A stretch of 64,000 nucleotides of DNA, from the NCBI RefSeq assembly GCF_964213995.1, contig NC_135804.1:93558001-93622000 (forward strand), written 5' to 3'. The translations under genes were made by a program, and so were the position numbers. This DNA is from Mustelus asterias. Its lineage: Eukaryota. Shown one piece after another: positions 6,247 through 52,243 of this stretch. The notes under the pieces are model-generated. The model was not told the origin of the DNA and made no database searches. It was given only the letters and a program-made list of their open reading frames with translations. Positions within the stretch are counted from its first letter, which is position 1, and each line of letters opens with the position of its first letter.

Positions 6247-6531
6247 CTAAAATAAGAACAAAATATGCATTTAGCTGCCTTTAGCAAACCTTACATGCGG
6301 TAGCAAACCTAATCACAATAATTAATCATGAATAAATCAAATATCCACTCTGTGTTAACATTTTTTTCTCATCCAAGTGCTTTCTCACAGAACGAATAAC
6401 ATTCAAGTAAAATATTTGTGGGGAGAGGTTAACAAATTAAACCTGATGTGGAGTTGCCGGTGTTGGACTGGGGTAGGCACAGTAAGTAGTCTCACAACAC
6501 CAGGTTAAAGTCCAACAGGTTTATTTGGTAG

Positions 6532-6566
6532 CACAAGCTTTCGGAGCGCCGCTCCTTCATCAGGTG
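6532..6566 (-). ncRNA. Minimal type I hammerhead ribozyme motif (PLE family A)
   Basis: cac-CTGATGA-a-GGAGC ggc GCTCC-GAAA-GC-T-T-gtg: conserved core, stem II, palindromic AGCT stem III, 3-bp stem I. Confidence 0.75.
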
Positions 6567-6569
6567 AGT

Positions 6570-6604
6570 CACCTGATGAAGGAGCGGTGCTCCGAAAGCT
6601 CGTG
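6570..6604 (+). ncRNA. Minimal type I hammerhead ribozyme motif (PLE family A)
   Basis: cac-CTGATGA-a-GGAGC ggt GCTCC-GAAA-GC-T-C-gtg. Confidence 0.75.
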
Positions 6605-8497
6605 CTACCAAATAAACCTGTTGGACTTTAACCTGGTGTTGTGAAATTAAACCTGATTTGCAGTAAATTGAATGGTAGCATAATAATCCATTTGCAAGTA
6701 TAGCATTTGCCTTGTAACTCAATCCTGTTCAGGGACAAATGAATTGTGCAATTTGAATGAAGTTATGGTTAGAGAAAGATTGAAATGTATTTAAATGCTG
6801 CTGTGTTTTGCATAACAGTAACTTAGGTCAGCCTAAAAGCTTCCAGTTGTCCTTTCCTCTGCTTTATCATCAGCTATAGAGACCAAAACACAGGCCATAA
6901 TTAACAAAGGAAATTTTCACAAAGGAATTTGCTGCTATCTATAGGAATTCTAAGGATGGGATAATGTTGGGCCCTCCAGCCATGGAAATAGATCCTAGGT
7001 ATCAAGAGCCATCTGGAGATGAGAAAAACTTCTAATAATCTAATACACCTCACACTCATACACCCTTGCTAGTGAAAAAAACAAATCATGAAACCCAATC
7101 AAAGCTTTTAAATCTCAAACAGTTGACCTCTTATGAAAAACAAATTTCTGTTCAGACCCACATCAAAGATACTTAATCCTTTAATAGCCTATTTACATGT
7201 TAATTACACTATGAACTCTGAACCTCCTGCTGAGATAATTATAGCTTTTGAAACTCATTGAAGCGTTTCTAATGCCCTCGGGTAAATATCAAAAAAGGCC
7301 TCCATTGAAACTGCATAACTAGATGGCAATGTTTATTTTTCTAACCATACCAGATGGCCTGCCAATCAAAGCTGTCCAGCAGAATAATATTTTTAACTCT
7401 TACTGTCAGCTTCAGCCTGTATTTTTTATGTTTAAAGAGTGGTGGATTTAAAACACTTAATATCCTGAAACTTAAACTTCATGACTGTTTAAGGCCTTTG
7501 CAACTGCCAAAGTGGGATTGAATTCAGCACTAAGTTTAAACGGCCTTGCTGAGTTCAAGTTTCTCTCCTGTGTGAATCATGTCCTGATCCTTTCCCCCAC
7601 TGGAAATGGGAATGGAAACTTCACAATAACATCTCTCTGCCATTTTTAAAGTTGATTCCCCAAACTTCCAGCCCAAAGTATCAAGCTTCAAACCCCAGTC
7701 TTAGCATGTCACTTTAAAATGGATTAATGTTTTTTTAAAAAGGGAGTGAGTTTTTCAGTCAATTTTCCCTTTTTAAAAATCATTACAAAAATAAATATGA
7801 TTTTAAAATTACCGGTTTTGTGATAGTAACAATCATATATATTAACCAAAACAAGACGCACACAATTTTGAACTAAAGGGTTATTGGATAGAAATCAACA
7901 TGTTCACTGGTTTTAAGGCCAAAATGTAGCAGTCCAAGTGCCATTATTATGAAGTCTGTTCAAACTGGGATTATTAATCCATGTGACTCATTGGCACACT
8001 GGTCCGTACTAACAGAGCCATCAGAAGAGTTGACTCATTTAAATTATATTGAAGGATGGAGTTGAGAGAGTTACAGAAAAAACACAAATCTCACCAATGT
8101 TTCAACTCTCAGGGGTAAAAACAGTCACTCCATCCATAATGTAATTGTGAAGTTAAAACATTCGCACTACAACCCAACTCCAGAAAGCATTTCAATTGCG
8201 ATGTTATTAGATCACTATACATGGACTTCAGTTTGCCGGAAGTTTACTTAAATGAGAATATGTTACCTTTTCAAGAGTAACCTGATGTTTTACTACACGG
8301 TAGTTTTAACCTCTGGTTGCAGACACATAAATTATTAATAATTAAATAGTCTGAAACTCTTGATGACATTTTGAAGAGTAGCACTGGCTGTTTCTAAGAA
8401 CAACTGTGAAGCAATTGCTACTTGTATTTCAAAGCTCTTCCATGTAATTTAAATGATCAGTATGATGGAATGTAATCTGTAGTTATGTTATTATTAC

Positions 8498-8689
8498 CTC
8501 ACAGATGTCCTTCAGATGTTTAATGTAGTGTCGTTCTGTGCTCATAATTTCATTGATGACATTTGCTCTCATTTGGTCTCGGTTCTGAACACTCCTGCCG
8601 AGGCACAGGCAGTCAGAGTTGGGGTCCAGATGCCCATTTTGAATCTCGCTACTGGCTTCATCTACAGTGTCTTCCTGGTTCACCCAAAG
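8498..8689 (-). CDS. ARHGEF9: ARHGEF9 coding exon, SH3-DH linker and start of DH domain (192 nt, phase 0/0)
   Basis: [64 protein letters not shown]; acceptor GGCAG|, donor GAG|GTAATA; continues the SH3 exon in frame. Confidence 0.97.
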
Positions 8690-9574
8690 CTGCCATTAAA
8701 TGAAGAAAAACAATGTGGATAAATTGACTGGCATCAAGTTCTTTTACTGTCTCTCATAGATCAGCTTGTTGATCATAGTTAACTAACTGTGGGGAGAAGT
8801 GCCCCAAGCAGTTAACTTGTAAGCGATTGTTACCTGCATATTCAGGACCAAGGCAGGATTTCTTGACAAAATGGTTATCATCACTGTGGGGTGCAAAGAT
8901 ACAATACAAAGCCTCTTTTGCTCTTCATTCCTGAAGGGGCTGATAAGCTGCCAAAGCAATCATCAGTCCACCAATACTTTGTTAAAATTATCATTCTTCA
9001 TGTGAATCTAGGCAATGAGTATCATTGTACAATTCATCTATAGAGGAGCATTATACTAAAACCCGAGTCTGCCATTGCCCAGTGCTCACACATTCTAGAT
9101 GCAATCATTGAATAGAAACCAGGAGCAGCAGCTCAGACAGATTTTTCAATCCTCAGTCTGGGACACACTGGAGGCAATTGTCATCTGCAGCTCCAGTCCA
9201 TGAATCTTGGTTTTGTGATCTGTATGGCTGCGTTATATGGCCTTTACTGACAGGGCCACAGAAATTGCTCTTGAAGATGCATTCCAAAGAAGTGAAACAA
9301 ACCATACAAACTATTCAATTAATTTTGACCCATTAAGCATCAGATCTATTGAGATGTGCACTGACCTTACTGAGATGAGCAGAAAAATTGTTGCAGTTCA
9401 CCCATGTGCTCTTTGAACATTTGCCATTGCCTGTTCACTGTCATCCCTTCAAGTAACATTTCCCAATCCACCTTAGTCGATTCGCGCCTCATACCATCAT
9501 AGTATCCTTTGTCCAGATTCAGGACCCCTGTCTCAGAATCAAGTAGTCACTCTCCATCTTGATGAAGAATTAAA

Positions 9575-10200
9575 ATATAGAAACTAGAGGCAGGAATAGG
9601 CCATTTGGCCCTTTGAGCCTGCTCTGCCATTCATTTTGATCATGGCTGATCGTCAAATTCAATATCATGATCCCCTTTACTCCTCATATTCCTTGATCCC
9701 TTTAACCTCAAAGACTATATCTAGTTTATTCATGAAATCAGGCAATGTTTTGGCCTCAACTACTTTCTGTGGCAGTGAATTCCACAGATTCACCACACTC
9801 TGGATGAAGAAATTTCTCCCCACCTCAGTTCTAAAAGGATTACCCCTTAGCCTCAAAATATGACCCTAGTTCTGGACTCCCCCATCATTGGGGACATTCT
9901 TTCTGAAACTACCCTGTCTAATGCTGTTAGAATTTTATAAGTTTCTACAAGATCCCCTCTCACTCTTCTAAACTCCAATGAATATAATCCTAACCGAATC
10001 AGTCTCTCCTCATAAGACAGACCTGCCATCCCAGGAATCAGCCTGGTAAACCTTCGCTGTACTCTCTCTATAGCAAGAACATCCTTCTTCAGATAAGGAC
10101 ACCAAATCTGCACACAAAACTCCAGGTGTGGCCTCAACAATGCCCTATACAGTTGCACCAAAAAATCCCTATCCCTATACGCAAATCCTCTCACTATGGT
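9575..10200 (-). mobile_element. CR1 LINE 3' fragment
   Basis: ORF 9853-10317 contains LYRALLRPHLEFCVQIWCPYLKKDVLAIERVQRRFTRLIPGM (CR1 ORF2 C-terminus); CR1 3' tail at ~9575-9620. Confidence 0.9.
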
Positions 10201-14220: not shown

Positions 14221-14249
14221 ACTACAATCATAGAATGGTCACAGCCAAG

Positions 14250-15355: not shown

Positions 15356-15357
15356 AT

Positions 15358-18875: not shown

Positions 18876-19344
18876 AAACCGAGATGAGGAGGAATTTCTT
18901 CAGCCAGAAGGTGGTGAATCAGTGGAATTCATTGCCACAGAAGGCTGTGGAGCCCAGGTCATTGTGTATACAAGACAGAGATATATAGGTTGTGGAATGT
19001 GAAGGGGATCAAAGGTTATGGGGAAAAAGCAGGAGAATGGGGTTGAGAAATAGATCAGCCATGATGGAATGGCGGAGCAGACTCGAGGGGCGAATGGCCC
19101 ACTAAAGGCATTGTACAAATGCAAACTTTCTTTTATAAAGGTACGACTTTGCTGCAAACTGGATTTAATGACAAGTTCTCATCAGCTTCCAGAATTTTAA
19201 ATCTTGGATACACACAAAATTATAGTATTTGCATCTAATGGAGTCGAAAGGTAGCAACAAACAGGTACCCGCTCATTGATATTGTCTAATGTTTGAACAT
19301 TTATCTAGATTTCATATAGCTTATTCACAGGTCCATGTCCATGA

Positions 19345-19577
19345 TAAAAGCAAATTACTGCGGATGCTGGAATCTGAAACCAAATGAGAAAATGCTGGAA
19401 AACCTCAGCAGGTCTGGCAGCATCTGTAAGGGGAGAAAAGAGCTGAAGTTTCGAGTCCAAACGGCCCTTTGTCAAAGCTTTTGACAAAGGGTCGTCTGGG
19501 CTCAAAAGATCAGCTCTTTTCTCTCCTTACAGATGCTGCCAGACCCGCTGAGATTTTCCAGCATTTTCTCTTTTGGT
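19345..19577. mobile_element. Fold-back PLE mini-element, family B
   Basis: Inverted arms 19378-19476 / 19480-19578; 33-nt tail 19345-19377; TSD TCCATGTCCATGA (19332-19344, 19578-19590). Same pLTR as the GIY-YIG-linked copy ending at 36880. Confidence 0.88.
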
Positions 19578-21552
19578 TCCATGTCCATGACTTTGGCACC
19601 TATGAAGGAACTGCCTGTTTACATGGGATTCTCTCTGCTACAAAGGACTTCAAAGGGCATTGGCATATTATAAAACTCCAACTCATTCCTGTTGTAGGAT
19701 TTCCAAACTGTCGAACATTGTATTTCTTCAGTCTTCCCCATCTCTTACAATCTTCATACATTAAAATCCAAACATTGGTTTTTATCCATTGTGATTTATC
19801 TCAAATGTTGATAATGTACTGTATGGGATTTGACCCTACAGCTATACTTCTTAAATTAAGAAGAAGCACTGGAGAATTGTACTAAATCACTATCATTAGA
19901 GGACAATAAGAGGGGAATCTTCTCTAGAGGATGGTCCATGGCTGCAGCGGTAACCTTGAAGTTACCTCCAGCTATTTGCTGGGCTTCAGCCTTGTAGGCT
20001 GCCTGTCAGCAATGTCCTTGTGGCATCCCCAAGTGGTGAATTAATCGCCACCAACTGGTGACCCAATGCTGCCAGATGAATAAACAGTGTCAGCCTGACC
20101 ACCCCCCTCACCCCATACCCCCTACCCCAGCAAGATTGTGTGGCCATGGGAATGAGACCCCTACATACAACTTTCAAAAAATCCCCACCCTCCTGCTCCA
20201 AAGCAGCATCTGCATCTACTTTGTGAGTATCCTTTATCAGCTAATTCATGCAGATTGTCACCTAATTGAAATAGTAATCCTAATGGTGGTAGGACACATA
20301 AAACTCTGTAACTTTGCCCAGGTGGGCGAGCTGACACATAGGTCAATTATATTGCTCGTCCTCAAGGAGTGTAAACCTCCCCCTTTATACCAGCTGCTGG
20401 AATTCACTTCTGAGTTTCCCCAAGGGACCAGGACTTGCAGGTCTTTGGATATAGTCATATAACAATGAATCCTGGCAGAATGAACATAAATATATGTGCT
20501 GTCAGTATACACGTAAGATGCATCATAAGACTATTTGAAGCCTAATTTGGTACTCATCCTTAAAAATGAATCTCAATGGCACCAACCAAATGAATTGCTG
20601 TCTTCCTGACTTTCTTCGCTGTGAGTGAATTTTACTATTGCAATATTTCAACTTGCACTTGCTGGAGTCCTAGAGGCGTTTGGGCTGGGCATAGCTGAGG
20701 ACTGAACACAGGCTCCAGGTTAAATTATGAGTAACCTATTGATTACTGACCCAATAATTGTTTCAGCCCAAGAGTTCCACTAGCTAAGTCTCACCGTGTC
20801 AAATAAATCCATTAATTAAGGATAAAACTGAGTGAACGAGTCCATTAACCAGGGACGACTCAAATTAACTTAATTCACAAATCAGGGACCAAAGTAATTT
20901 ATTCTATTTGTACCTCAGCTGGGAATAACGCTTTGAAATTATGCTCAACATTTCTCTCGGGTATCAATCTCTCAACTACATGGTCTGTAATTACTTTTAT
21001 ATCATCTGATTCAAAATTCTCTGTGGCGTTTTACCTTGATGTGGAGATGCCGGTGTTATCTCCAAGAAGATCGCGCACATCGAATTCTTACCGCTTTTTA
21101 CTTTGCATCCTTTCTCATTTATACACTGACTGTTTTTTTAATTTAAATCCCAATGCTAAACATGACAAGGAGAGTTTATCGCCACATTTTCCCAGTGGCA
21201 CTTTGTCCACTGGAAAAATACTGTAATGCATGTCAATAATTACACAATGTTGGTCAATGTAATGGTTAATTTGCCTTTGCAGGGCAGAACCCTATGATCA
21301 ACCATTGCATTAAAATGCAATTACATTACAATAAACATCTAATAGTAACTTTTGAAGAAGCGAAAACATTTTATACTTACTTTTCAGATTGCTCCTGACT
21401 CCTCAGTAGACTTCCTTCAGTAATCATGAACTGTCCAAGGTGTTACATTTTTACACCTTCCAAAACCCACATTAACACATAAAAATAGGATACAAGAGGG
21501 AAACACAATTTTCCTATGGTCCTCACAACGAGCATCTCACCCTCGGAAGAGA

Positions 21553-21941: not shown

Positions 21942-22703
21942 GTCCAATGCATGTGCATTTTGCATCCAAGGCCTTCCTGACCCACCCAAAGGTCACACGA
22001 AGGTGGTGTGGGATCAGGAAGACAGAGGAAGTTTGTTTTCTCACAAAACAAAAGTAAGATGAGTGCTTTTCAATTTGATTCACACCTCAACCAGGGTCAC
22101 AAATGCAGCCCTGGAACTGTTCACAGTGCTCCATGTGTGGCCTAACCAAGGTTCTGTATCGGTTTAGCATAACTTCACTGCTTTTCAATTCTATCTCTCG
22201 ACAGATGAATCCTAGCATTGTGTTTACTGTCTTAATAACTGCATCACTGCTTTTAGTGTTCTATTTATCTGCACCCAGATCCCTCTGACTCTCTATTCCT
22301 CAACCCCATTTAGACACTATTTTCCAAAAAGTACATGGCCTCCTTTCTCTTCCTACCAAAATGTATTACTTCACCTATCTATATTGAAGTTAGTTTGCTG
22401 ATTGTATGCACAGGTGCCAGTACTTTGTTCAGATGGCCAATCTTTACATAAGAGACTAGACAGTGATTGCTAATGGGCTATTGAATCATTAACTATCACA
22501 TATCCAAATGTGACTGGCTCCTCATCTGATGTCCGCACATTAGCACTTTTCAGCAGAAGTCACAGTTTGGCAACCTTGGATTTCTGATTTATTCCTTTTC
22601 AGCTCAGAGCCATTGATGCTAATTGTAGCATCTCAACTACTGTTCCAGGTAAGATCACATCTTGTCTTGTGTGTACTGTTCACTGCTGCAGCAATGTCTT
22701 TAT

Positions 22704-22844
22704 TATTGAGCTTTGACAAAGGGTCATCTGGATTCGAAATGTCAGCTCTTTTCTCTCCTTACAGATGCCACCAGACCTGCTGAGATTTTCCAGCGTTTTC
22801 TCTTTTGGTTTCAGATTCCAGCATCTGCAGTAATTTGCTTTTAC
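22704..22844 (+). mobile_element. Solo PLE pLTR, family B, with tail
   Basis: Matches the 19480 arm plus the tail; TSD GCAATGTCTTTAT / GCAGTGTCTTTAT (22691-22703, 22845-22857). Confidence 0.85.
22709..22747 (+). ncRNA. Minimal hammerhead ribozyme motif, U3-A8 core variant (PLE family B)
   Basis: agct-TTGACAA-a-GGGTC atctg GATTC-GAAA-TG-T-C-agct; stem I AGCT/AGCT, GUC cleavage triplet. Confidence 0.65.
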
Positions 22845-22879
22845 GCAGTGTCTTTATCAATCATGTCACAGTGACTTAT

Positions 22880-26193: not shown

Positions 26194-28240
26194 GTCAAGG
26201 CAAGGCTGGCAGAAGTAGGGAACCCTGGATGACTCGGGATATTGAGGCCCTGGTCAAGAAGAAGAAGGAGGCACATGACATGCATAGACAGCTGGGATCA
26301 AGTGAATCCCTTGAAGAGTATAAGGGGTGTAGGAGTAGAGTTAAGAGAGAAATCAGGAGGGCAAAAAGGGGACACAAAATTGTTTTGGCAGATAGGGCAA
26401 AGGAGAATCCAAAGAGCTTCTACAAATACATAAAGGGCAAAAGAGTAACAAGGGAGAGAGTAGGGCCTCTTAAGGATCAACAAGGACATCTATGTGCGGA
26501 TCCACAAGAGATGGGTGAAATCCTAAATGAATATTTCTCATCAGTATTTACGATTGAGAAAAGCATGGATGTTAGGGGAAATAAATAGTGATGTCTTGAG
26601 GAGTGTACATATTACAGAGAAAGAGGTGCTGGAAGTCTTAAAGCGCATCAAGTAGAAAAATCCCCAAGACCTGATGACGTGTATCCCAGGACGTTGTGGG
26701 AGGCTAGGGAGGAAATTGCGGGTCCCCAAACAGAGATATTTGAATCATCGATAGCCACAGGTGAATTGCCTGATGATTGGAGGGTGGCAAATGTTGTGCC
26801 TTTGTTTAAAAAGGGCTGCAGGGAAGAGCCTGGGAACTATAGGCCAGTGAGCCTCACATCTGTGGTGGATAAGTTGTTGGAAGGTATTTTGAAAGACATT
26901 AAGAGGCATTTAGAGATGCAAGGACTGATTAGGGACAGTCAGCATGGCTTTGTGAGTGGAAAATCATGTCTCACAAATTTGATTAAGTTTTTTGAAGAGG
27001 TAACCAAGAAGGTAGATGAGGGCAGTGCAGTTGATGTTGCCTAGACGGACTTTAGCAAGGCCTTTGACAAGGTACCGCATGGTAGGTTTTTGCATAAGGT
27101 TAAATTTCACGTGATCCAGGGTGAGGTAGCTAAATGGATACAAAATTGGCTTGACGACAGAAGCCAATGTGGTTGGAGAGGGTTGTTTTTCAAACTGGAG
27201 ACCTGTGACCAGTGGTGTGCCTCAGGGATCAGTGCTGGGCCCACTGTTATTTGTCATTTATATTAATGATTTGGATGAGAATATTGGAGGCATGGTTAGT
27301 AAGTTTGCAGATGACGCCAAGATTAGTAGCATAGTGGACAGTGAAGAAGGTTATCTCAGACTGCAACGGGAACTTGATCAATTGGGCCAGTGGGCTGACG
27401 AATGGCCAATGGAGTTTAATTTAGATAAATGCGAAGTGATGCATTTTGGTAGATTGAACCAGGGCAGGACTTCCTTAGTTAATGGTAGGGCGTTGGGGAG
27501 AGTTACAGAGCAAAGAGATCTAGGGGTACAGGTTCATAGCTCCTTGAAAGTGGAGTCACAGGTGGACAGAGTGGTGAAGAAGACATTCAGCATGCTTGGT
27601 TTCATAGGTCAGAACATTGAATACAGGAGTTGGGACATCTTGTTGAAGTTGTACGAGACATTGGTAAGGCCACACTTGGAATACTGTGTACAGTTCTGGT
27701 CACCCTATTATAGAAAAGATGTTATTAAACTAGAAAGAGTGCAGAAAAGATTTACTAGAATGCTACTGGGACTTGATGGATTGAGTTAAAAGGAGAGGCC
27801 GGATAGACTGGGACTTTTTTCTCTGGAGCGTAGGAGGCTGAGGGGTGACCTCATAGAGGTCTATAAAATAATGAGGGGCACAGATCAGCTAGATAGTCAA
27901 TATCTTTTCCCAAAGGTAGGGGAGTCTAAAACTAGAGGGCATAGGTTTAAGGTGAGAGGGGAGAGATACAAAAGTGTCCAGAGGGGCAATTTTTTCACAC
28001 AGAGAGTGGTAAGTGTCTGGAACAAGCTGCCAGAGATAGTAGTAGAGGCGGGTACAATTTTGTCTTTTAAAAAGCATTTAGACAGTTACATGGGTAAGAT
28101 GGGTATAGAAGGATATGGACCAAATGTGGGCAACTGGGAGTAGCTTAGGGCTTTAAAAAAAAGGGGCGGCATGGACAAGTTAGGCCGAAGGACCTGTTCC
28201 CATCTGTTTCCATACTGGAAACCTCTATGACTATGACTCT
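26194..28240 (+). mobile_element. 5'-truncated CR1 LINE (RT domain to 3' UTR), frameshifted
   Basis: DWRVANVVPLFKKG..PGNYRPVSLTSVV, QHGFVSGKSCLTNL, SGVPQGSVLGPLLF, KFADD, RPHLEYCVQFWSP; (CTATGA)n tail. Confidence 0.95.
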
Positions 28241-31789: not shown

Positions 31790-33210
31790 CCCTTGACAGA
31801 GTAAGATTGTATGTGTCATATACAGTGGACAACAACAAGGGAAAAAGTGCTCAGGAGGATATTGAAGCGATCCCCCTGAGCAGTCCAGGCAGTGAAACCT
31901 CATTCTAAGTAGGCATATGGTCCTCTCAATTGTGGAGGCATGACTGCAGTTGTAGATCTTGATGTGGAGATGCCGGCGTTGGACTGGGGTAAACACAGTA
32001 AGAAGTTTAACAACACCAGGTTAAAGTCCAACAGGTTTATTTGGTAGCAAAAGCCACACAAGCTTTCGAAGCTCTAAGCCCCTTCTTCAGGTGAGTGGGA
32101 ATTCTGTTCACAAACAGAGTTTATAAAGACACAGACTCAATTTACATGAATAATGGTTGGAATGCGAATACTTACAACTAATCAAGTCTTTAAGAAACAA
32201 AACAATGGGAGTGGAGAGAGCATCAAGACAGGCTAAAAAGATGTGTATTGTCTCCAGACAAGACAGCCAGTGAAACTCTGCAGGTCCACGCAACTGTGGG
32301 CGTTACAAATAGTGTGACATGAACCCAATATCCCGGTTGAGGCCGTCCGCGTGTGTGCGGAACTTGGCTATCAGTTTCTGCTCAGCGACTCTGCGCTGTC
32401 GTGTGTCGCAAAGGCCGCCTTGGAGAACGCTTACCCGAATATCAGAGGCCGAATGCCCGTGATATTTCGCTGAGCAGAAACTGATAGCCAAGTTCCGCAC
32501 ACACGCGGACGGCCTCAACCGGGATATTGGGTTCATGTCACACTATTTGTAACGCCCACAGTTGCGTGGACCTGCAGAGTTTCACTGGCTGTCTTGTCTG
32601 GAGACAATACACATCTTTTTAGCCTGTCTTGATGCTCTCTCCACTCCCATTGTTTTGTTTCTTAAAGACTTGATTAGTTGTAAGTATTCGCATTCCAACC
32701 ATTATTCATGTAAATTGAGTCTGTGTCTTTATAAACTCTGTTTGTGAACAGAATTCCCACTCACCTGAAGAAGGGGCTTAGAGCTTCGAAAGCTTGTGTG
32801 GCTTTTGCTACCAAATAAACCTGTTGGACTTTAACCTGGTGTTGTTAAACTTCTTACTGTTGTAGATCTTCCCAGCTGCAGTCTTGGGTCTCTCAGTGGT
32901 GTCATCAGCCACCTTTTCAGTGGATAACCTTTGCCCCCAAGGAGTCAGCCACCCAAGTGAACTGGAGCAGTGAAGAACCAGGGACCAGGGAATGAAGAAG
33001 GATGTAGGCATCATAGCAGCTTATATAAACCTGGCACAAGCCTGCATTATCTGACACTTGTAGTCACACAATCTGGACATCGTAAACAGAAAGGGCCTCC
33101 ACTTTCTCACATGCATGCAGTCAATGGCTCTTTGGATGCAGAGAAATCCTGTAATTGCAGTGAAGCCTCTGACTCACTCTGCCTGGTTAGCTTCATTCGT
33201 CCTGAAGCTA
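31790..33210 (-). pseudogene. Harbinger DDE transposase remnant interrupted by a PLE palindrome
   Basis: GFLCIQRAIDCMHV, VQIVCDYKCQIMQACAR, LGGKGYPLKRWLMTPLRDP and, after the insertion, YNCSHASTIERTICLLRMRFHCLDCSGGSLQYPPE: HARBI1-like motifs with frameshifts. Confidence 0.85.
31961..32860. mobile_element. 5'-truncated PLE (family A) with inverted duplication: 394-bp arms, 78-bp spacer, 34-nt tail
   Basis: Arms 31995-32388 / 32467-32860; GIY-YIG C-terminus HSASDIRVSVLQGGLCDTRQRRVAEQKLIAKFRTHADGLNRDIGFMSHYL; HHR motifs 32057-32093(-) and 32762-32798(+); TSD GTTGTAGATCTT (31949-31960, 32859-32870). Confidence 0.93.
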
Positions 33211-36242: not shown

Positions 36243-36880
36243 GCCCACTTGTCTGTCCTTGGCCTGCTACAATATTCCAGTGATGCTCAACGCAAACTGG
36301 AGGACCAGCATCTCATCTTCTGGCTCGGCACGTTACAGCCTTCCAGTCTCAACATCGAATTCAACAACTTCAGATGATTAGCCCTACTCCACTCAAACCC
36401 CTTTGTTTTCATTTTATTTAATTTTGAACTGTTCTGTACCTTTTATTTCTTTATTGTCTTTCTTTATTTTCCTTTTTCTCCCTTGCCACTCTTTCCCCTA
36501 TTTTATCCCACCTTGCCTTACTTTTTCTCCCCCTTTGCTTCCCCTTTCCCCTTTTTCTCAATTTTACCTCTCTCCCACCCATCTCCCCCATCCCCTCCGA
36601 ACCTTCATCTGTCACAGATTACCCTCTGATTTCAACTTCTCTGCCGTTTGGCCATTCACATCCTTTATTCTCTCTGTGGACTGCTATTAGCAGCCTTTCC
36701 CCTTGTTTTTGTGGCTATGACTCATCCTTAATTCCCTCACCCTGCAGTATAAATATCTCCCACTTTCTGTGCCTTTAAGCTTTGACAAAGGGTCATCTGG
36801 ACTCAAAACATCAGCTCTTTTCTGTCCTTACAGATGCTGCCAGACCCGCTGAGATTTTCCAGCATTTTCTCTTTTGGTTT
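36243..36880 (+). mobile_element. 5'-truncated PLE (family B): GIY-YIG C-terminus, 3'UTR and pLTR
   Basis: 36243-36377 encodes AHLSVLGLLQYSSDAQRKLEDQHLIFWLGTLQPSSLNIEFNNFR*; decayed HHR at 36778-36816; ends at TTTTGGTTT without the tail. Confidence 0.85.
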
Positions 36881-37654
36881 ATAAATCAGATTAATTGTTG
36901 TATTCAAACAACGAGTATAATCAAATTAAATATGATGGCAAATATGGCGACAAAGTATCATACACTCACTTGCTTTCGAGCATCTTGGGACTCCACTAAA
37001 TACTCACCGATATAGGAAATTTTCTGAAGCTGTTTCTAAATCTCATTAATAGGTAAAGCATCCTTTCCGTAACATTTAATTTGTAACAATGCTGAAATAC
37101 AACTACGTCTGATGTAACTGCTGTATAACTCTCTAATTAACACAGCATGTTTAGTTACAGAATAAAACTATCCCATCAAATTTATCAAACTCAAGAAATT
37201 CTCCTGATAGTTTTCTATTTCTATAGCAGCCATTTATTTTGTAAGCAAGATTGCCAATTTAGCAATCTATTATAGGCAGTTTTGTTGTGCGCATTCATAC
37301 CTTAAAACACATTTCAAATTATCCTTAAAAACACATTTCAAATTATCCTATCAGTCTGGGTTGGACTTGAGATGAAAGACTGGTGATGAATCCACTTAGC
37401 CCAGTATCTACTGCAGCAACCATGCAAAATAGCTCTCCGAGACTACTTCTTTATGATAGTACATTATTATTCAGTATTGTACATTTTCCTTCCTAGGGAT
37501 CATTTATCTACATCTCTTGATCTGCAAGACAACTACAAGGTTGAAATTTTTTGGTCTTTGCTTCCATTTTCAAGATGTATATAGAATCATAGGATCCATA
37601 GAGTGCAGAACCAGGCCATTCAGCCCATCAAGCCTGCACAGACAACAATCCCAA

Positions 37655-38502
37655 ACAAACCCTCACACTCACACAAACACTCACACTCACCCTCTCTCTC
37701 ACACACACACACACTCACCCTCTCTCTCACACATACACTCACCCTCTCTCTCACACACACTCACCCTCTCTCTCACACACACACTCACCCTTTCTCTCAC
37801 ACACACACTCACCCTCTCTCTCACACACACACTCACCCTCTCTCTCACACACACACACTCACCCTCTCTCTCACACGCACACTCACCCTCACACACACAC
37901 TCACCCTTTCTCTCACACACACACTCACCCTCTCTCTCACACAGACTCACCCTCTCTCTCTCGCACACACTCACCCTCTCTCTCACACACACACTCACCC
38001 TTTCTCTCACACATACACTCACCCTCTCTCTCACACACACTCACCCTCTCTCTCACACACACGCTCACCCTCTCTCTCACACACACACTCACCCTCTCTC
38101 TCACACACACTCCCTCTCTCACACACACTCACCTTCTCTCTCACACACACTCACCCTCTTTCACACACACACTCACCCTCTCTCACATACACTCACTCCC
38201 TCTCTCACACACACTCACCCTCTCTCACACACACACTCACCCTCTCTCTCACACACACACTCACCCTCTCTCACACACACTCCCTCTCTCACACACACTC
38301 ACCTTCTCTCTCACACACACTCACCCTCTTTCACACACACACTCACCCTCTCTCACATACACTCACTCCCTCTCTCACACACACTCACCCTCTCTCTCAC
38401 ACACACACTCACCCTCTCTCACATACACTGACTCCCTCTCTCACACACACTCACCCTCTCTTTCACACACACACTCACCCTCTCTCTCATACACACACTC
38501 AC
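37655..38502. repeat. CA/CT minisatellite (~20-24 bp unit CACACACTCACCCTCTCTCT) embedded in a minus-strand SINE (37580-38638)
   Basis: Tandem units; SINE tail on the left (ATAGAATCATAGG..GGCCATTCAGCCCATC) and SINE body on the right (TATTTACCCTGCTA..CACATCTTTGGACTGTGG). Confidence 0.9.
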
Positions 38503-39094
38503 AAGGTATTTACCCTGCTAGTCCTTCATTTAGCATAGCCAATTCCCGCTGCACATCTTTGGACTGTGGAAGGAAACCGGAGCACCTGGAGGAAACCCAC
38601 GCAGACATGGGGAGAACGTGCAAACTCCATACAGGCAGTATACTGTAGACTGTATTTAGAACATATGGAAATAAACACTGTCGCATACTGTTAACTGAAT
38701 TTGCATTATCTAGCCCCAAACATTCATATCCAAATGGGTCTTCAGATGTAACAACCTCACTGAATTACATTGAATGAACCTTTCAGTTCTCTGTTGCGCA
38801 ATAGCCACTGACACCCAAAAGGAAATCACAAAGGCAACCTGCGCACTGCATCTGGTGATAGGCATCCATTTGTGACCACCTTTTACATTAGCAAAAATAA
38901 TAAAGTTTTGGAATAGCCGACAACTTAATTTGTTTTCACTCTTCGAATCTGTGGAGAATTGATATCGACTGCTTCTAATCACTGGACAATATATTAAACA
39001 ACAAAATAACTCAATGAAATAAACCTCGTCACCCATCACCAAAGAGAAATTTCCATCAGGTGCACAAGAGTTGAGGGCAAGGAGAATTTAATAG

Positions 39095-39945: not shown

Positions 39946-40011
39946 CTCCGTTTCTCTTTTAGATTTTCACTTCTGTTCACAAAATGTCAGTCTGTGCCAC
40001 TGTGCTGGTTA

Positions 40012-40302
<291 letters not shown>

Positions 40303-42107
40303 TTAAGGTTATTATCATCACAAATGAATATAAGCCATCTCGCACACAATCTCTGGTATATGATCACACTCTATTTGGCAGTTGATTGACTGGATAATTA
40401 TACGATGTATGATTGCATAAAGTTGACAAAATGTGAATAGAACCCAACAGAGGAGAAGAAAATTACTGCCAAGAAAGAGACTCCTTTTGTGAAAAAGACA
40501 ACCAACTAAAAATGGCTGAGACACTCAACAAAAAAAAATTGTTTAGTACATTTCCTTAGAAAGGAATCTAGAATGAGGGAAGCTAAACTGTGCAGGCAGG
40601 AATGTAATTATACTCAGAGCAGAGGTGGCAATACACAATACTCTGTATTGAAGAAGCTAATCTCAGTTTGGTTATTAATGAAGGCACTCCAGTTGGTCGC
40701 CCTGATGAGAAAGGGGAAAAATGAAAAAGGTCACTGCTCCCAATTCTTGTCCGATGAAAGAGTGTGTATGTAAATACCTGCCACGTGTAAATAACCTGTC
40801 AGGGTTCAACGTGAATAACAACCATTTAAGTGAGGTATTGGAGAGTGACTAGCTTCCCAGCAAGGAGTCAATGCCTCAGCTGAAGAGAAGGGAAGGGAGA
40901 ATGAGTAAAATGTCATCTAAAAGAAAGCGGATGAATGCAAAAATAGACAATGAAGTATGAGCGGTTCGTATCACCTAACCCAAATGGATAAACTGATCAA
41001 ATCTTTAACTTAGCCAGAATTATCTAATTCCTTTTTGGATGAGAGATTTTAGTCAGTGCATTAGCTGCCAGTCTATTCCAAACGTCAAAGATTAAACTGA
41101 CCAACATCTGCTGCTTGGAGGTTCCTGCAGCTTCCAGTCCTTTGGTGCTGTCTGTTCAATTTGCACAGCAAAACTACAGTCTCAATTTTCTCCATTACTT
41201 TTAAATCTTAGACCATACCCACTGCTAATCTTTAATTCTAAAAAAATCTTCCATTCTTCGAGCAGCTCAAAGGGCTTCTGACTTCGCAAGATTTTCAAAC
41301 CGGAAAGCTTTTAATGAAAACAATGACACTGAAATACATTTGTGCCTAAAAACAGACAGACAGACAGGGATTGCGAGGATTGATCCCTGCTCCTGAATGA
41401 GTTGGTGCGTGTAATATTGGACTTGGGTCTCATTAACTTAGAGCCAGTGAGCTGTGAACACCAAACAAACATTGCCAGGGTGCCCACTGAATGACTCAGA
41501 AATTGGGCTTCTATAATGCCAGCTGCCGTCACGGTGGTTGGGAGGATAGCAGTGAGCGGGCGGATGGGTAGCGTTGGCTGTGATTAAGAGGATGCCTCGC
41601 ATTCACGGTGACTGGGGAAGTTTGGGGTCAAGTTCATCGTTATGAGGATAGGGTGTGACCAACTGCAGTCTGAATGACTTGAATGTGGAGCTGGAAGGAG
41701 TAGTGTGCTGCTCCTCCATCCTCAGTACATTCTAAACCAGGCTCGTCCAACTTTTTCCCACTGGGGGCGGGGGGGCGAATACATACATTTTTCTCATGCT
41801 GTCAGGTGGGGGAGGGACAAAATGAGCAAATTCTGGAAAAGTAAAGTTCCACAACATTAAACATGAATTCCAAAGGAAAATGCTGATGTATGAAAAGAGA
41901 TAACTTGCTGAGCAAAAAAAAGTCACACCAATAAATTGATAATCAAAAAATGGGTAATAAATAAAGATGAGTGTGAAAGAGAGAGTGTGTGTGTCCAGCT
42001 CACTCCCAGTCCCAGGGTGTTCACTCACTGACCCTCTGAAGGAGCCTGTTAGTGTGACGGGTGGGGATAATAATAATAACCCTGAGACTGGGAATCTTTC
42101 TCTTACA

Positions 42108-45100
42108 AACACACACACTCACCCTCTCTCCCACACTCACCCTCTCCCTCACACACACTCACCCCCTCTCACACACACTCACCCCCTCTCACACACACTC
42201 ACCATCTCTCTCATACACACACTCACCCTCTCTCACACACACTCACCATCTCTCTCACACACACATTCACCCTCTCTCACTCACACACTGACCCTCTCTC
42301 TCACACAAACTCACCCTCTTCTCACACACACACTCACCCTCTCTCTCACACACACACTCACCTCTCTCTCACACACACATTCACCCTCTCCTCACACACA
42401 CAGACTGACCTCTCTCACACACAACCTCACCACTCTCTCACACACACCCCCTCACACCACAACACCCCACACACACCTCACCCTCACACACACACCACCC
42501 CTCACCCCACACACACCACCCTCCTCTCACACACACTCATTCACCCTCTCTCACACACACCCCCCTCTCTCACACACACTCACCCTCTCTCTCACACACT
42601 CCCCTCCTCACACACACACCCTCTCTCTCACACACACTCACCCCTCTCTCACACTCACCCCTCTCTCACACACACACTCCACCCTCCCCCTCCTCACACC
42701 CACACTCACCCTCTCTCTCTCTCACACACTCACCCTCTCTCACACACACCTCACCCTCTCCACACACACTCACCCCTCCTCTCACACACACTCCACCCTC
42801 CTCTCACACACACCTCACCCCCTCACCCTCACACCTCTCCCTCACACTCACCCTCTCTCACACACACACTCACCCTCTCTCACATCACACACCTCACCCT
42901 CTCTCACACACACATCACCCCTCCACACACACACTCACCCTCACTCTCACACTCACCCTCTCTCTCACACAGACATTCACCCTCTCTCTCACACACTCCC
43001 CCTCTCTCTCACACACACCCACCCTCTCTCACACACACTCACCCTCTCTCACACACACACCCCTCTCTCACACACACACTCACCATCTCTCTCACACACA
43101 CACTCACCCCTCTCTCTCACACTCACACTCACCCTCTCCCTCACACTCACACTCACACTCACCCTCTCTCTCACACACACACTCGCCCTCTCTCTTACAC
43201 TTACACTCACCCTCTCTCTCACACACACACACACCCTCTCACACACACACTCACCTTCTCTCTCACACACACTCACCCTCTCTCACACTCACACTCACCC
43301 TCTCTCAGAAACACTCACCCTCTCTCTCACACACACACTCATCCCCTCTCTCTCACACTCACACTCACCCTCTCTCTCACACACACACTCTCCCTCCTCT
43401 CTCACACACTCACCCTCTCTCTCACACACACTCATCCTCTCTCACACACACACTCTCCTTCTCTCTCACACACACACTCACCCCCTCTCACACACACACA
43501 CCACCTCTCACACACACACCTCACCCCCTCTCACACACACACACCTCCTCTCACACACACACTCACCCCCTCTCACACACACACACCTCCTCTCACACAC
43601 ACTCACCCCCTCTCACACACAAACACTCTCTCTCTCACACACACTCACCCTCTCTCTCTCCCACACTCACCCTCTCTCTCACACACTCACCCTCTCTCGC
43701 ACACTCACACTCACCCTTTCTCTCACACACACTCACCCTCTCTCTCACACTCACACGCACCATCTCTCACACACACTCATCCCCTCTCTCTCACACTCAC
43801 ACTCACCATCTCTCTCACACACACGCTCACCCCCTCTCTCTCACACTCACACTCACCCTCTCTCTCACACACACACTCACCCTCTCTCTCACATACACAC
43901 TCACCCTCTCTCTCACACACACATCACCCTCTCACACACACACTCACCTTCTCTCTCACACTCACCCTCTCTCTCACACAGACATTCACCCTCTCTCTCA
44001 CACACTCCCCTCTCTCTCACACACACTCACCCTCTCTCCCACACTCACCCTCTCCCTCACACACACTCACCCCCTCTCACACACACTCACCCCCTCTCAC
44101 ACACACTCACCATCTCTCTCATACACACACTCACCCTCTCTCACACACACTCACCATCTCTCTCACACACACATTCACCTCTCTCACTCACACACTGACC
44201 CTCTCTCTCACACAAACTCACCCTCTCTCTCACACACACACTCACTCTCTCTCACACACACTCACCCTCTCTCTCACACACACATTCACCCTCTCTCACT
44301 CACCACACTGACCCTCTCTCACACNNNNNNNNNNNNNNNNNNNNNNNNNNNNNNNNNNNNNNNNNNNNNNNNNNNNNNNNNNNNNNNNNNNNNNNNNNNN
44401 NNNNNNNNNNNNNNNNNNNNNNNNNNNNNNNNNNNNNNNNNNNNNNNNNNNNNNNNNNNNNNNNNNNNNNNNNNNNNNNNNNNNNNNNNNNNNNNNNNNN
44501 NNNNNNNNNNNNNNNNNNNNNNNNACACACACTCACCCTTTCACACACAAACACTCACCCTCTCTCTCTCCCACACACTCACCCTCTCTCACACACACAC
44601 TCACCCTCTCTCACACACACTCTCCCTCTCTCTCGCACACACTCACCCTCTCCTCACACACACACTCACCCTCTCTCACACACACACACTCACCCCCTCT
44701 CACACACACACACTCACCCTCTCCCTCACACAAACACCCACCCTCCTCTCACACACACCACCCCTCTCTCACACACACACACTCACCCTTTCACACACAC
44801 ACACTCACCCTCTCCCTCACACAAACACCCCCTCTCTCTCTCACACACACACCCACCCTCTCTCTCACACACACACACTCACCCTTTCACACACACACAC
44901 ACTCACCCTCTTTCTCACATACACACTCGCCCTCTCTCACAAACACTCACCCCATCTCTCACACACACACTCTCCCCTCTCTCACACACACACCCACCCT
45001 CTCTCTCACACACACACACTCACCCTTTCACACACACACACTACCCCATCTCTCACACACACACTCTCCCTCTCTCACACACACACCCACCCTCTCTCTC

Positions 45101-46407
45101 ACACACACACACTCACCCTTTCACACACACACACTCACCCTCTTTCTCACATACACACTCGCCCTCTCTCTCACAAACACTCACCCCATCTCTCACACAC
45201 ACACTCTCCCTCTCTCTCACACACACTCTCCCTCTCTCTCGCACACACTCACCCTCTCTCTCACACACACACACTCTCTCTCACACACTCCCCCTCTCTC
45301 TCGCACACACTCACCCTCTCTCTCACACACACACACTCTCTCTCACACACTCACCCCATCTCTCACACACACACTCTCCCTCTCTCTCACACACACTCTC
45401 CCTCTCTCTCGCACACACTCACCCTCTCTCTCACACACACTCACCCTCTCTCTCACACACACTCACCCTCTCTCTCACACACACTCACCCCTCTCTCACA
45501 CACACACACTCACCCTCTCTCTCCCACACACTCACCCTCTCTCTCCCACACACTCACCCTCTCTCTCACACACACACTCACCCTGTCTCTCACACACACT
45601 CACCCTCTCTCTCACAGACACTCACTCTCTCTCTCACACACACACTCACCCTCTCTCTCACACACACACTCACCCTGTCTCTCACACACACACTCACCCT
45701 GTCTCTCACACACACTCACCCTCTCTCTCACACACACACTCACCCTGTCTCTTACACACACTCACCCTCTCTCTCACATTCACTCTCTCTCACACACACA
45801 CACTCACCCTCTCTCTCACACACACTCACCCTGTCTCTCACACACACTCATCCTCTCTCTCACAGACACTCACTCTCTCTCACACACACACAGTCACCCT
45901 CTCTCTCGCACACACACACAAACACTCTCTCTCTCACACACACTCACCCTCTCTCTCTCACACACTCACCCTCTTTCTCACACACATGTACACAGCACTC
46001 TGTCTCTCACACACACACATTCAAACAGTCTTCTGTCTGACACACTCCGCCCTCTATCTCTCTCACACACAGACACAGAGCCCTCTGTTTCTTTCAGGCA
46101 CACACACACTGACAGCCCTCTATCCCTTACACACAGCCCTCTATCTTTCTCTCTCCACACACACCCACACGCACATCCAGCCTTCTGTCTCTTTCCGATG
46201 CACACACACACGCAGACAGCTCTCTGTCTCACACACACAGCCCTCTATCTCTCCCACTCTCTCTCTCTCACACACACACACACCCACAGCCCTCTGTGTC
46301 TGTCTCTCTCTCTTTCTCACACACACACACGCGCGCATACAGCCCTCTGTCTCTTTCAGGTGCACACACATACAGACAACCCCCTGTCCCTCACACACAA
46401 CCCTCTA

Positions 46408-46438
<31 letters not shown>

Positions 46439-46524
46439 GACACAGACTCACACACCCCTCATTCTCTTTCAGGTGCACATACACACATACAGACAACTCT
46501 CTGTCTCTCACACACAGCCCTCTG

Positions 46525-46560
<36 letters not shown>

Positions 46561-46562
46561 AG

Positions 46563-46595
<33 letters not shown>
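42108..46595. repeat. Large CA/CT minisatellite array (CACACTCACCCTCTCTCT-type), grading into ACAGCCCTCT variants after ~45990
   Basis: Direct inspection; spans the assembly gap. Confidence 0.95.
44325..44524. other. Assembly gap (200 N)
   Basis: Run of exactly 200 N, probably a fixed-size scaffolding gap. Confidence 0.99.
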
Positions 46596-46872
46596 TGATG
46601 CGCAATTGATTCACACGGGAGGCTAGGACGTACCCGGGAATAAAGGCATTTATTCAAACAAGATTGGAGCACACTACTTAACAATACTATCCCAGACTAA
46701 GGGCTACTAGGAAGTAGCTGTGACCTTTATACTCCTGTAAGAAGGCGGAGCCGAACGGAGTGTACCACATAAACAATAATAACAGGTGGAACACCCAAAC
46801 CCTAACCCCAACAGTAACAAGAGTAACATATGTACAAGTACCCATAGTGGTAACCATCTATGGTTCACCACA
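46596..46872 (-). mobile_element. Short solo LTR (277 bp) inserted in (CA)n
   Basis: TG...CA termini with TGATG/CACCACA near-inverted ends; CACAC on both sides; TATAAA (~46726) and AATAAA (~46648) on the minus strand. Confidence 0.75.
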
Positions 46873-47354
46873 CACACACAGCCCTCTCTCTCACACACAC
46901 ACGTATACACCTCAGTAACAGTGAACATTAGGTCAATCACATACTTGGATTGGATATTTACAGTAATAATGATGTAAGTAATCCACTTGATGGGTGCTCA
47001 TGCTCCAGTATTGCTATGACAAATTAGAATATGCTATAACAGACCATCGCCATTGAAAATCCACCTACTGCGTGGTTCAGGGACTCTGTATTTGTGTAAG
47101 CCACTCACTCTCACTCTCCCCTTTCACTTTCACCCCCTCTCACTCCTCTGGCTTCACACTCATTCACCCACACTCACTCATTCACCCACACTCACTCATT
47201 CACCCACACTCACTCATTCACCCACACTCACTCACCCCTCTATAATACAACCTGGGTTAGATTTGATGAGAGTGAGAGAGAGCCCTGGAGTGAAGCCTGA
47301 TGCCTAGCGATGCCCGGACACAGTTGCTCATGGAGGGGAGGGCTGAGAGCCAGG

Positions 47355-49577: not shown

Positions 49578-50668
49578 TGTCAGAAAAACCTAATAAATTG
49601 TAATATTTTTCTGTCATATTTTTTTGGTTGTTAAAGCAAGGGATAGAGTGACTGTATGAATCGAAGCTGTGGGTTTGATATGGTGATGAGCCCAGAAATA
49701 CTTAAAACAGAACATAAGATACCTTTGTAGAATATTTACAAACAGGAGTAGATTTGATTGGGTTGTTGTGGTACAAAGGAGAAGATACGCAGGGTGGAAA
49801 AGACAGGTGTCATAGGTAAAGTATGGATAGAGTGAGTTTACTTTTCTTTTAATTTCTAAGAGTTAAAGTACAGAAATGAAGTTCATCAATTTCGAGAGAG
49901 AGCATTTCTAAAGAGACAATGGAGAGATCAAAGGGAAATAATTTATTTTAAGGAGAAAGTGAATCTTCTTAGATCTCATCAGACAGCAGGAATGACTGGT
50001 CAAACTCACAAAGTAAGAACTTTAACAACACCAGGTTAAAGTCCAACAGGTTTATTTGGTAGCAAAAGCCACACAAGCTTTCGGAGCTCCAAGCCCCTTC
50101 TTCAGGTGAGGGGCTTGGAGCTCCGAAAGCTTGTGTGGCTTTTGCTACCAAATAAACCTGTTGGACTTTAACCTGGTGTTGTTAAACTTCTTACTGTGTT
50201 TACCCCAGTCCAACGCCGGCATCTCCACATCAAAACTCACAAAGCCAGAGCTGTTAACTTAGCTGTTGTTAACCTCAGAGGGAAACCACAACAGAGAATT
50301 AAAGGCACTGTGTGGTAAAAATTATTAGACTTTTATAGATCTTAAAATCTATAATGATTTGCTGAACAGATAGGGGGGAGATTAGCTTTGAAAGTAGCTA
50401 AATTAAGATTGTGTGGAATTGTCCTAAAGTATTAGTACTGTGTGAAGCCATTGTGGTGTTTTCAGTGTAATTCTATGTTCTGTTCTATTTCTTAATAAAC
50501 ATTTAGTTTACTATAAAATAATCACAAGTAGTCAGGGACATCATTTCTGGACTTCAACACCACTCCTCATACTATACAAATTGCAAAACAAATGTGAAGA
50601 CAGTTGGCTTCAACTTCCCCTTCTGGGATTTGAGCAGCTCAGTATATACCACCAGCCATGTCTTAACA
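49578..50668 (+). mobile_element. Probable solo LTR hosting a PLE palindrome
   Basis: Ends TCTTAACA; AATAAA ~50494; candidate start TGTCAG with flanks CTAG/CCAG. 5' boundary uncertain. Confidence 0.4.
50012..50232. mobile_element. Fold-back PLE mini-element, family A
   Basis: Arms 50012-50098 / 50109-50195, 10-nt spacer, 37-nt tail 50196-50232; TSD AAACTCACAAAG (50002-50013, 50233-50244); intact HHR motif 50072-50108(-). Confidence 0.9.
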
Positions 50669-51914
50669 CCAGAGAGTGCTATCATTGTCTGCCAGCATAA
50701 ATACCTTGCACCTTCTTCTCAGTAAAGCAATCAAAGCCTTCCTTTGATCTCGGATAATAAACCGGGTTTCCTGTCAGGCAAACGCCAGAAAAGTCACATG
50801 GTCCCTTTATTTATTCTCAATTTAAAATGACAATCCCAAAATATAGTAATCTTCTAAATTTCATTGTTGTAACAGTACTTCCTGGTGGTGTCTTGTTGTT
50901 GAATTCTGTAAGTTGTATAGCATGCGTTAATATCGGAGGCTTATTCAAGCTGTATTACAGTACACTCCCTGATTTGTCTGATCATCTGACACTCTGCTTT
51001 ATTTTGCCAATCATATGCACAATGATGATATTCCTAGATGGGTACACATCGCATTATACCAATGCTTAGCAGGTGCACTGTAGAGGGGTCATGAGTTAGA
51101 GAGATGAGGAGAGCAATCTTGTTCCCCAGATGCCAATTTTCACATTTTCTTCTTGGGTCAAATGATGGCAACATTATAAATTTTCTTATAATAAAGGAAT
51201 CATGCCTGCTGCCTGGGGAGTCAGCATTGGCCTGCCTGGTCCTGTGTAGGTTAACGGAGTGAATGCTCTTGCAATTAATGAATTCAGTGCATGTGCGCAA
51301 TATGTGTACAATCAATGATGCCTTGCATTTTCAGGAATCCTGCAATTTCAAAAACAATTGTTAACAGTTGGCCACAAAGAATGTGATGAAATAGCTTATC
51401 TTGTTAAATAATGTATCGTACCCGCTTGCTTCCATATTTCTGCACTCCTGACTACTGATGTCCCCTGTAGCTACCTGGGATATTTCATTAAATGCCAGGG
51501 CTGAAGTAGCCTTAACAGCATAGATGCTTCAGCATGCAGTATAATTCTATCACCACCCTAATGAACCCTAGCACATGCGAGGGATGTCCAATATTTTGAA
51601 GTTGCAAGACTGATATATGTGTCAAGTGTGATATGCAATAATCTGAGCAGCAGACATAAACAGGCTTTTTTTCGAGGCACAAATAAGCCAAATCCACATA
51701 CAGGAAAAAAAAACAAAAGGCCCATATAGAAAAAGAAAATACTGCGATCCCTTCCCACTCTCCTCTTTCCCTGCACCTCCACCTCCTTTCCTGCACCCTC
51801 ATCTTCCCTCCCAAAGGTGGGTTTATTTTCTCTCCTGTTTTTATTCTTTCTCTGTCTTTGTGCCTTTCTATCTCTCTCTCTCTTTCCTCTTCTATTCCCA
51901 GTTTCTCTTACCTT

Positions 51915-52034
51915 TAAGAAGTCTAACAACACCAGGTTAAAGTCCAACAGGTTTATTTGGTAGCAAAAGCCACTCGCTTTCGGAACAGGCTGTTCCTTCA
52001 TCAGGTGGGTGGGAGTTCTGATCACAAACTACCA
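51915..52034 (-). mobile_element. Solo PLE pLTR, family A, tail-less
   Basis: TSD TCTCTTACCTTTA (51904-51916, 52035-52047); HHR-like motif 51971-52007. Confidence 0.85.
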
Positions 52035-52243
52035 TCTCTTACCTTTAGCCCTTCTCTCTCTGATTCTTTCTTTGCTCTTCTCTCAATTTCCCTCAAATCC
52101 TTTCACATTGCAATACATCATTCAGAAGATTCCACTACCCATACATGACACCACTTCAAAAGATGCATGTGCAATGAAGACCAAAGAGATTTGTTTGGGG
52201 CAAAAGAGGATGTGAGGACATACTTTGGTTCTTTAAAGCTGAG

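Follow-up and report, generated by a model that had tools for sequence, protein, structure and literature searches.

Head-to-head Penelope-like element insertions in Mustelus asterias: likely twin priming at each insertion, with short arms that likely end at the RNA start beside the hammerhead

Palindromes made of the pseudo-long terminal repeats (pLTRs) of Penelope-like elements (PLEs) occur repeatedly in a 64,000-nt stretch of the genome of Mustelus asterias (assembly GCF_964213995.1, contig NC_135804.1, forward-strand positions 93,558,001 to 93,622,000), which is hereafter called the window and holds 200 N. We consider these palindromes to be 5'-truncated head-to-head PLE insertions that were likely twin-primed anew at each event, the short ones likely ending at the start of the RNA, and we give this reading a probability of about 0.65. 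The genome contains tens of thousands of such junctions, and three readouts of them carry this reading: family-A ends at -6 are preceded by an extra G, the commonest centre occurs in either polarity with respect to the tail, and the tailless arm is often the longer one on the 5' side. Together they speak for priming at both ends of the target and for an RNA start at the first base of the hammerhead. Both claims are directly testable in an existing in vitro system.

Positions within the elements are counted on the sense strand of the element from position 0, which is C3 or U3, the first catalytic-core base of the hammerhead, and arm ends were mapped by BLAST with a precision of about 3 nt. The sample comprises 1.464 Mb, that is, the window and the next 200 kb plus six 200-kb blocks at round-number coordinates on other contigs; it contains 107 arms of a family A and 92 of a family B, and copy numbers were extrapolated on the basis of a genome size of 3.68 Gb. 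Head-to-head pairs of family A number 32, a 33rd having been dropped as a mispairing of neighbouring insertions (83% arm identity and no target-site duplication, TSD). In all 32 pairs one arm is tailed and reaches +115 to +130 and the other is shorter, reaching +78 to +101, with one ambiguous at +111. A TSD of at least 10 bp (10-17 bp, mostly 12-14) was found for 30 of the 32 pairs versus 0 of 96 mismatched-flank controls. The arms are often just 100-135 nt each, nine of the 32 pairs being at most 300 bp long with both catalytic cores, and extrapolation from the 32 pairs gives about 80,000 family-A pairs genome-wide. At locus L164 an open reading frame (ORF) for reverse transcriptase (RT) and endonuclease, 892 aa long, has its ATG where the tail ends, and 23 of 34 tails run on into the ORF ATG.

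Four such insertions lie in the window at the places given by an earlier note on this DNA, with TSDs of 12-14 bp and with tails (about 48, 35, 35 and 35 nt) that are within a few nt of the 47, 33, 34 and 37 nt stated there; their tailed arms reach +126 to +130 and the others +78 to +97. The family-A insertion at 6445 (6434..6657; 14-bp TSD 6434-6447/6644-6657) joins a tailed antisense arm, 6444-6569 (to -6), to a tailless sense arm, 6569-6644 (-4 to +78), at the centre GTG-AGT-CAC with its central G at 6568 and minimal hammerheads with C3 at 6563 (-) and 6573 (+). The family-B insertion at 19345 (19332..19590; 13-bp TSD 19332-19344/19578-19590) has a tailed antisense arm at 19345-19479 (to -4) and a tailless sense arm from 19480 to about 19577 (from -1), with degenerate hammerhead remnants of the U3-A8 type at 19475 (-) and 19481 (+). 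In the young family-A insertion at 50012 (50002..50244; 12-bp TSD 50002-50013/50233-50244) the tail is on the right: the tailless antisense arm ends at about -4 with a hammerhead C3 at 50105 (-), and the tailed sense arm, 50109-50232, begins at +7 and lacks the catalytic core. These three short insertions are indeed centred at the 5' edge of the hammerhead, as had been noted, whereas their description as double-hammerhead hairpins holds only for the one at 6445 with its two complete motifs; the right arm at 50012 is without the CUGANGA core and neither arm at 19345 passes the hammerhead descriptor.

The fourth insertion is the exception. Young and of family A, it occupies 31949..32870 (12-bp TSD 31949-31960/32859-32870) and consists of a tailed antisense arm 31960-32462 (to -372), a 4-nt filler and a tailless sense arm 32467-32860 (from -298), the arms being 100% identical across 394 nt; its centre at -372/-298 falls far upstream of the ribozyme, within the endonuclease-coding 3' end. 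The last 52 codons of the family-A ORF, the C-terminus of the GIY-YIG endonuclease region, are read at 32306..32461 (-), matching the end of the L164 ORF. On the + strand TATAAA stands at 32730 (-35 from C3) and the predicted transcription start is A 32759 (-6), a position derived from TATA spacing and the extra G; the mirror copy on the - strand has its TATA at 32120-32125 and its predicted start at 32096. A minimal type-I hammerhead, 32759..32801 (+), reads cac-CUGAAGA-stem II-GAA-AGCU-U, predicted cut, gug, with C3 at 32765. As for an empty site, the single sequencing run that covers the flank carries the insertion, and this run is possibly the source sample.

The hammerhead edge is a hot spot for turn-arounds, not a boundary. 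Among the 107 family-A arms, 36 have their 5' end upstream of -100, 5 at -100 to -31, 15 at -30 to -11, 20 at -10 to -1, 26 at 0 to +60 and 5 beyond +60; of the 66 ends that lie from -100 to +60, 20 belong to the interval -10..-1, which was picked after seeing the data (binomial p 2e-9). For family B 46 of the 92 arms were used, the other 46, below 85% identity, being excluded, and 16 of 35 ends fall in the same interval (21 of 75 when all 92 arms are counted). Without the window's own arms the counts are 17 of 61 in family A and 13 of 32 in family B. The centres of 35 independent pairs (36 entered, one +/+ pair removed by hand) lie upstream of -100 in 16, at -100 to -11 in 4, at -10 to +10 in 6 and at +11 to +60 in 9. 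The proposal that the 5' edge of the ribozyme, and not its cleavage site, marks where cDNA synthesis stops or turns back is thus borne out by the excess of 5' ends in both families, but it does not cover the centres far upstream or those downstream of the edge. Nor is the cleavage site silent: of 100 rows from the subfamilies searched, 13 have their end at +28..+30, a weaker excess around the cut predicted before +29 (by eye, p about 0.006), beside 11 rows at +21..+27, 4 at +31..+33 and 9 at +34 via an AT microhomology. This excess might be inflated by an interrupted palindrome at the same spot.

Regarding the cause of the hot spot, the hammerhead marks it, in our view, as the structure with which the transcript begins and not as an obstacle that stops the enzyme. 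TATAAA is found at -35 in the young A subfamily and TATA-like words stand there in most older A subfamilies (none in the CCAT subfamily), while B1 and B2 have TATAAAT at -34; standard TATA spacing puts the start at about -6 in family A and about -4 in family B. A genome search for family-A ends at -6 gave 6,151 matches, and the preceding base, counted by eye in the first 100 listed, on one contig, is G in 74, A in 11 and T in 15. For control ends at -5 (3,536 matches) the first 100 listed, counted likewise, have G in 31, C in 28 and T in 41, so that the G excess at -6 is significant (Fisher p 1.5e-9); after exclusion of 45 rows whose preceding base can be put down to the opposite arm or to a read-through mutation, G still precedes 37 of 55 ends versus about 28-30% expected. 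In L1, an untemplated 5' G has been read as the reverse-transcribed cap (PMC9341517; this and the other cited sources in the portions available to us). An edge about 30 nt behind TATA together with an extra G at -6 in family A argues for run-off at a capped start and not for a ribozyme stop, and short family-A arms likely stop at the capped RNA start, predicted to lie at the front edge of the ribozyme.

It is quite improbable, by comparison, that the folded hammerhead itself stops or turns reverse transcription at its 5' edge. The peak of 5' ends at this edge in both families would agree with such a block, and in family B the peak comes without an extra G, which leaves a cap there unsupported. 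However, an enzyme heading to the RNA 5' end should meet the 3' side of the ribozyme first and would be expected to stop there, the 36 family-A arms noted above extend more than 100 nt beyond the edge, and the monomer fold of family A is not unusually stable (z 0.26 and -0.55; -2.09 in family B). The earlier attribution of the stop to the ribozyme is not supported: a start site at TATA spacing falls on this edge, and family A has its extra G at just this position. A stop at a splice site or branch point at the edge was also considered and set aside, the strong donor there lying on the antisense strand.

Twin priming would account for the head-to-head arrangement as follows. A staggered cut of the target, to which the 10-17 bp duplication points, would leave two free 3' ends, and each would prime its own cDNA at one of two internal starts; one arm indeed starts at the tail end (in family A at the start codon of the ORF), and the start of the other lies upstream of it by about 35 nt. 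A cDNA primed in the upstream pLTR would be strong-stop-like, 100-135 nt long, and would run off the capped 5' end; cDNAs primed in the downstream pLTR would give long arms with variable stops. Some templates, a minority, may have their 5' end at the ribozyme cut instead. [quoted passage not shown] Two cDNAs ending in GTGAGT plus a cap-templated C could anneal via GAGTC with four pairs and a central G-G mismatch, and repair of this mismatch either way would produce the commonest centre in either polarity.

The junctions agree with two primings in several respects. The 27-nt centre of the insertion at 6445 occurs 327 times genome-wide, and at 31 loci with this identical centre (the first 30 listed and the window) the tail lies to the left 15 times and to the right 12 times, three loci have no tail and one has a tail on each side. 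Of the 32 pairs, 20 have a tailless arm that extends further 5' than the tailed one, the difference exceeding 10 nt in 16, and in 9 it is the tailed arm that extends further. In one pair (block C3, 134027) the tail arm of 17 nt and the tailless arm of 100 nt have no sequence in common, the two being enclosed in one TSD, and at 4 of 46 centre loci the arms are, by eye, of differing subfamily type.

Several findings weigh against the reading as a whole. The 5' extents of the two arms correlate (Spearman 0.64, n=32), which a fold-back predicts and independent truncations do not. The arms nearly always share their subfamily, even private variants, and must therefore stem from one template or locus or have been homogenised later; moreover, later deletions at the centre could mimic the asymmetry of the arms. 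In family B (4,249 matches) the base before the end is A in 52, C in 31 and G in 17 of the first 100 listed, with no extra G; the test is weak there, because a single perfect palindrome centred on AGCT accounts for 30 of the 52 A rows and C at this place is a variant of a subfamily, yet its outcome is still negative. There is also a shoulder of ends at -30..-11 (15 of 107), upstream of the proposed start, and only 8 of the 16 ends at -40..-11 belong to the TATA-less subfamily (Fisher p 0.17).

The correlated arm lengths and the private variants common to both arms speak for a fold-back, the process implied when the earlier note called these insertions fold-back retroelements: a single cDNA comes to a halt, in many cases at the 5' end of the RNA, folds back and serves as its own template, and a later asymmetric deletion at the centre blurs the symmetry. 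If a cDNA ended in GTGAGTC, a single G-C pair closing a 3-nt loop could yield the commonest centre, and self-priming has been published as the explanation of inverted PLE junctions, in that case on an antisense template (PMC3846280). We hold it unlikely all the same. Fold-back of the tailed strand would fix the polarity of the centre, which is observed to be independent of the tailed arm at 15:12, and it would be unable to produce the longer 5' reach of the tailless arm seen in 20 of 32 pairs; some pairs have no shared sequence or differ in subfamily, and the outer end of the tailless arm is fixed near +90, where a copying enzyme has no evident stop.

Twin priming could be reconciled with the correlation if a dimer carried out coupled synthesis on the two pLTRs of one transcript, or on sister transcripts. 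A more far-reaching version, which we regard as doubtful, is that PLE insertion is obligate twin priming by an RT-endonuclease dimer, with two pLTR RNAs paired through the self-complementary AGCU/ACGU of their hammerheads. If so, the hammerhead would be first of all a 5'-terminal RNA dimerisation signal, like the retroviral kissing loop, both target ends would be extended together from two different start sites, and the short palindromes would be fossils, in tens of thousands of copies, of paired strong-stop cDNAs.

In respect of propagation, the palindromes are likely built anew at each insertion event. Edge-centred palindromes that fit GGTG-N(0-12)-CACC number 2,082 genome-wide, and among the first 50 listed the commonest form occurs 12 times beside many others, with spacers of 0-2 nt absent. 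Centres carry microhomologies and short fillers, the latter often repeating nearby sequence, and the identical centre recurs with at least four arm subfamily types, the young subfamily included. The mixed side of the tail on the same centre supports a palindrome made at each insertion, since a master palindrome would transmit one arrangement.

The idea of a self-propagating, non-autonomous class, like miniature inverted-repeat transposable elements (MITEs) or retrozymes and copied whole from master palindromes, was put forward in the earlier note and is not supported, given this diversity. The 327 copies of one exact centre and the 2,082 fitting centres are what could be said for it. We judge it highly improbable, as most of the 32 sampled pairs have a centre of their own, the hammerheads lie on opposite strands, where a transcript would pair its arms, and the same centre is met in several subfamilies with the tail on either side. 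The homogeneity of a MITE family is lacking, for centres vary and the ends are asymmetric by virtue of the tail; nor are the ends shared with a DNA transposon, the arms being the terminal repeat of an RT-encoding element. The two or more same-strand tandem hammerhead units of a non-LTR retrozyme are likewise not seen in the palindromes. For annotation, the palindromes are PLE stumps rather than MITEs, retrozymes or microRNA precursors, the resemblance to the last being weak: a Rfam scan gave no hammerhead family match, and its miRNA matches, all below gathering scores, reflect the hairpins. As a separate observation, three same-strand hammerhead-region matches 158 nt apart (G000:C1:15480211-15480569) form a candidate tandem, retrozyme-like array of family-A pLTRs.

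The identity of the elements was approached from the long arm at 31961, which contains the ORF end; a genome search with its 52 codons found intact relatives. The 892-aa ORF of L164 has a Pfam RVT_1 match (E 8e-10) and no endonuclease match in Pfam, and short protein fragments gave no Pfam match. A GIY-YIG-type motif, VVYLIRC...YIGET...R...H, is visible by eye in the proteins of both families, and the family-B protein has the same layout as that of family A with 33% identity. To judge by these features both families are endonuclease-bearing (EN+) PLEs with a single ORF, RT followed by a GIY-YIG endonuclease, in accordance with the two PLE families named before. Alignment of both proteins places a C-x4-C-x2-C linker, a zinc-finger-like motif, between RT and endonuclease. 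Such a linker is a feature of the Neptune clade (PMC8557442), and both families appear Neptune-like as judged by this feature alone.

The hammerheads are, on sequence grounds, real minimal type-I motifs: the descriptor gave 54 matches in the sample and 0 in each of three shuffles, and covariation in stem I, from CAC/GTG to CAT/ATG, is seen between subfamilies. In a near-full-length copy (L163, 6017-6267 vs 2784-3286) the upstream pLTR is 81% identical to the reference and the downstream one 99.6%; one transcript could thus carry two pLTR types.

Several further features were recorded. A solo tailed family-B stump, 22708-22843 within 22691..22857 (+), has a 13-bp TSD with one mismatch and starts G-AGCT before U3 (22713), that is, at a G five bases before it, in agreement with the solo pLTR at 22704 that had been described as beginning 5 nt before a hammerhead. 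A solo tailless family-A stump, 51915-52029 (-25 to +88) within 51904..52047 (-), has a 5-nt filler and a 13-bp TSD (51904-51916/52035-52047), and a longer tailless family-B copy (from -535) at 36243..36880 (+) has TATAAAT at 36748, -34 from U3 36782. Among the sample blocks, a tail in direct orientation stands before a tailless arm within one TSD (C6 5683-5851), and family-A copies with L1-style internal inversions lie at approximately C2 11050-12125, C6 33153-34394 and C6 81910-83416, where a piece of the ORF in antisense adjoins the sense arm at its 5' end, the two overlapping little or not at all. A family-B insertion (L067 391-960) has a piece of the RT thumb region between two arms starting at -5 and -1, and a family-A tail fragment lies within a family-B pLTR (L182 2739-2803). 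In the window, family-A antisense reads CAG-GTGAGT, a perfect splice-donor word, at the predicted start (6561-6569 and 32088-32096, +), and family B sense has acceptor-like words, a pyrimidine tract followed by CAG, near +48 and +101; these are possible cryptic splice sites for host genes. The window also contains a LINE-type RT fragment at 27151-27789 (+), which we take to be CR1-like, and long low-complexity stretches rich in CA, whose ORFs are spurious (37517-38538, 41967-44198 and 45986-46609).

Twin priming has its best-known form in L1, where, as reportedly described by Ostertag and Kazazian in 2001, two non-overlapping parts of one RNA are copied with a start at the poly(A). Here, by contrast, the two cDNAs would be copies of one and the same region, made from two internal starts that are fixed. 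The likeness would lie in priming by both sides of the break, an inverted product within one TSD and joins at microhomologies (PMC2246262). In EN+ PLEs, inverted 5'-truncated copies with a one-sided tail of 30-40 bp, a TSD and palindromic junctions, as well as pLTRs with a TATA and an initiator-like motif, are on record (PMC3846280, PMC8557442), and the origin of inverted one-tailed insertions is described as unresolved (PMC8557442). What is already known, then, is the inverted pLTR, the one-sided tail and the TSD; new here is the evidence from the extra G and from centre polarity. The present data differ from the earlier account (PMC3846280) in favouring two primings over self-priming, and in arms that are often just 100-135 nt. 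In the literature searched, with subscription papers and supplements mostly outside its scope, we found no twin-priming or start-site account of PLE inversions.

With regard to hammerheads, the minimal motifs of metazoan PLEs (PMC4209133) resemble those here in their type-I form, in palindromic bases 15.2-16.2 and in a U3-A8 variant, here that of family B, and opposite-strand hammerhead pairs 100-700 bp apart were already noted there in Schistosoma, with no mechanism offered for them in the portion available. Non-LTR retrozymes (10.64898/2026.07.22.740005) are likewise non-coding, hammerhead-bearing and derived from PLE pLTRs; they are same-strand tandem units, whereas the palindromes here are opposite-strand pairs with TSDs and no lineage of their own was seen. 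The closest counterpart is the Anolis Poseidon element PAc, studied in vitro (PMC11167929). According to the portion of that source available, no RNA reads ending at the cleavage site were found and hammerhead cleavage is dispensable, and the same portion contains neither an explanation of inverted insertions nor a map of the RNA start; the PAc ORF starts inside the hammerhead and that of family A at the tail end. As is likely in the present elements, two internal RT starts bound the tail about 100-130 nt behind the hammerhead, and the anole protein, predicted to be a dimer, cuts and extends both target strands.

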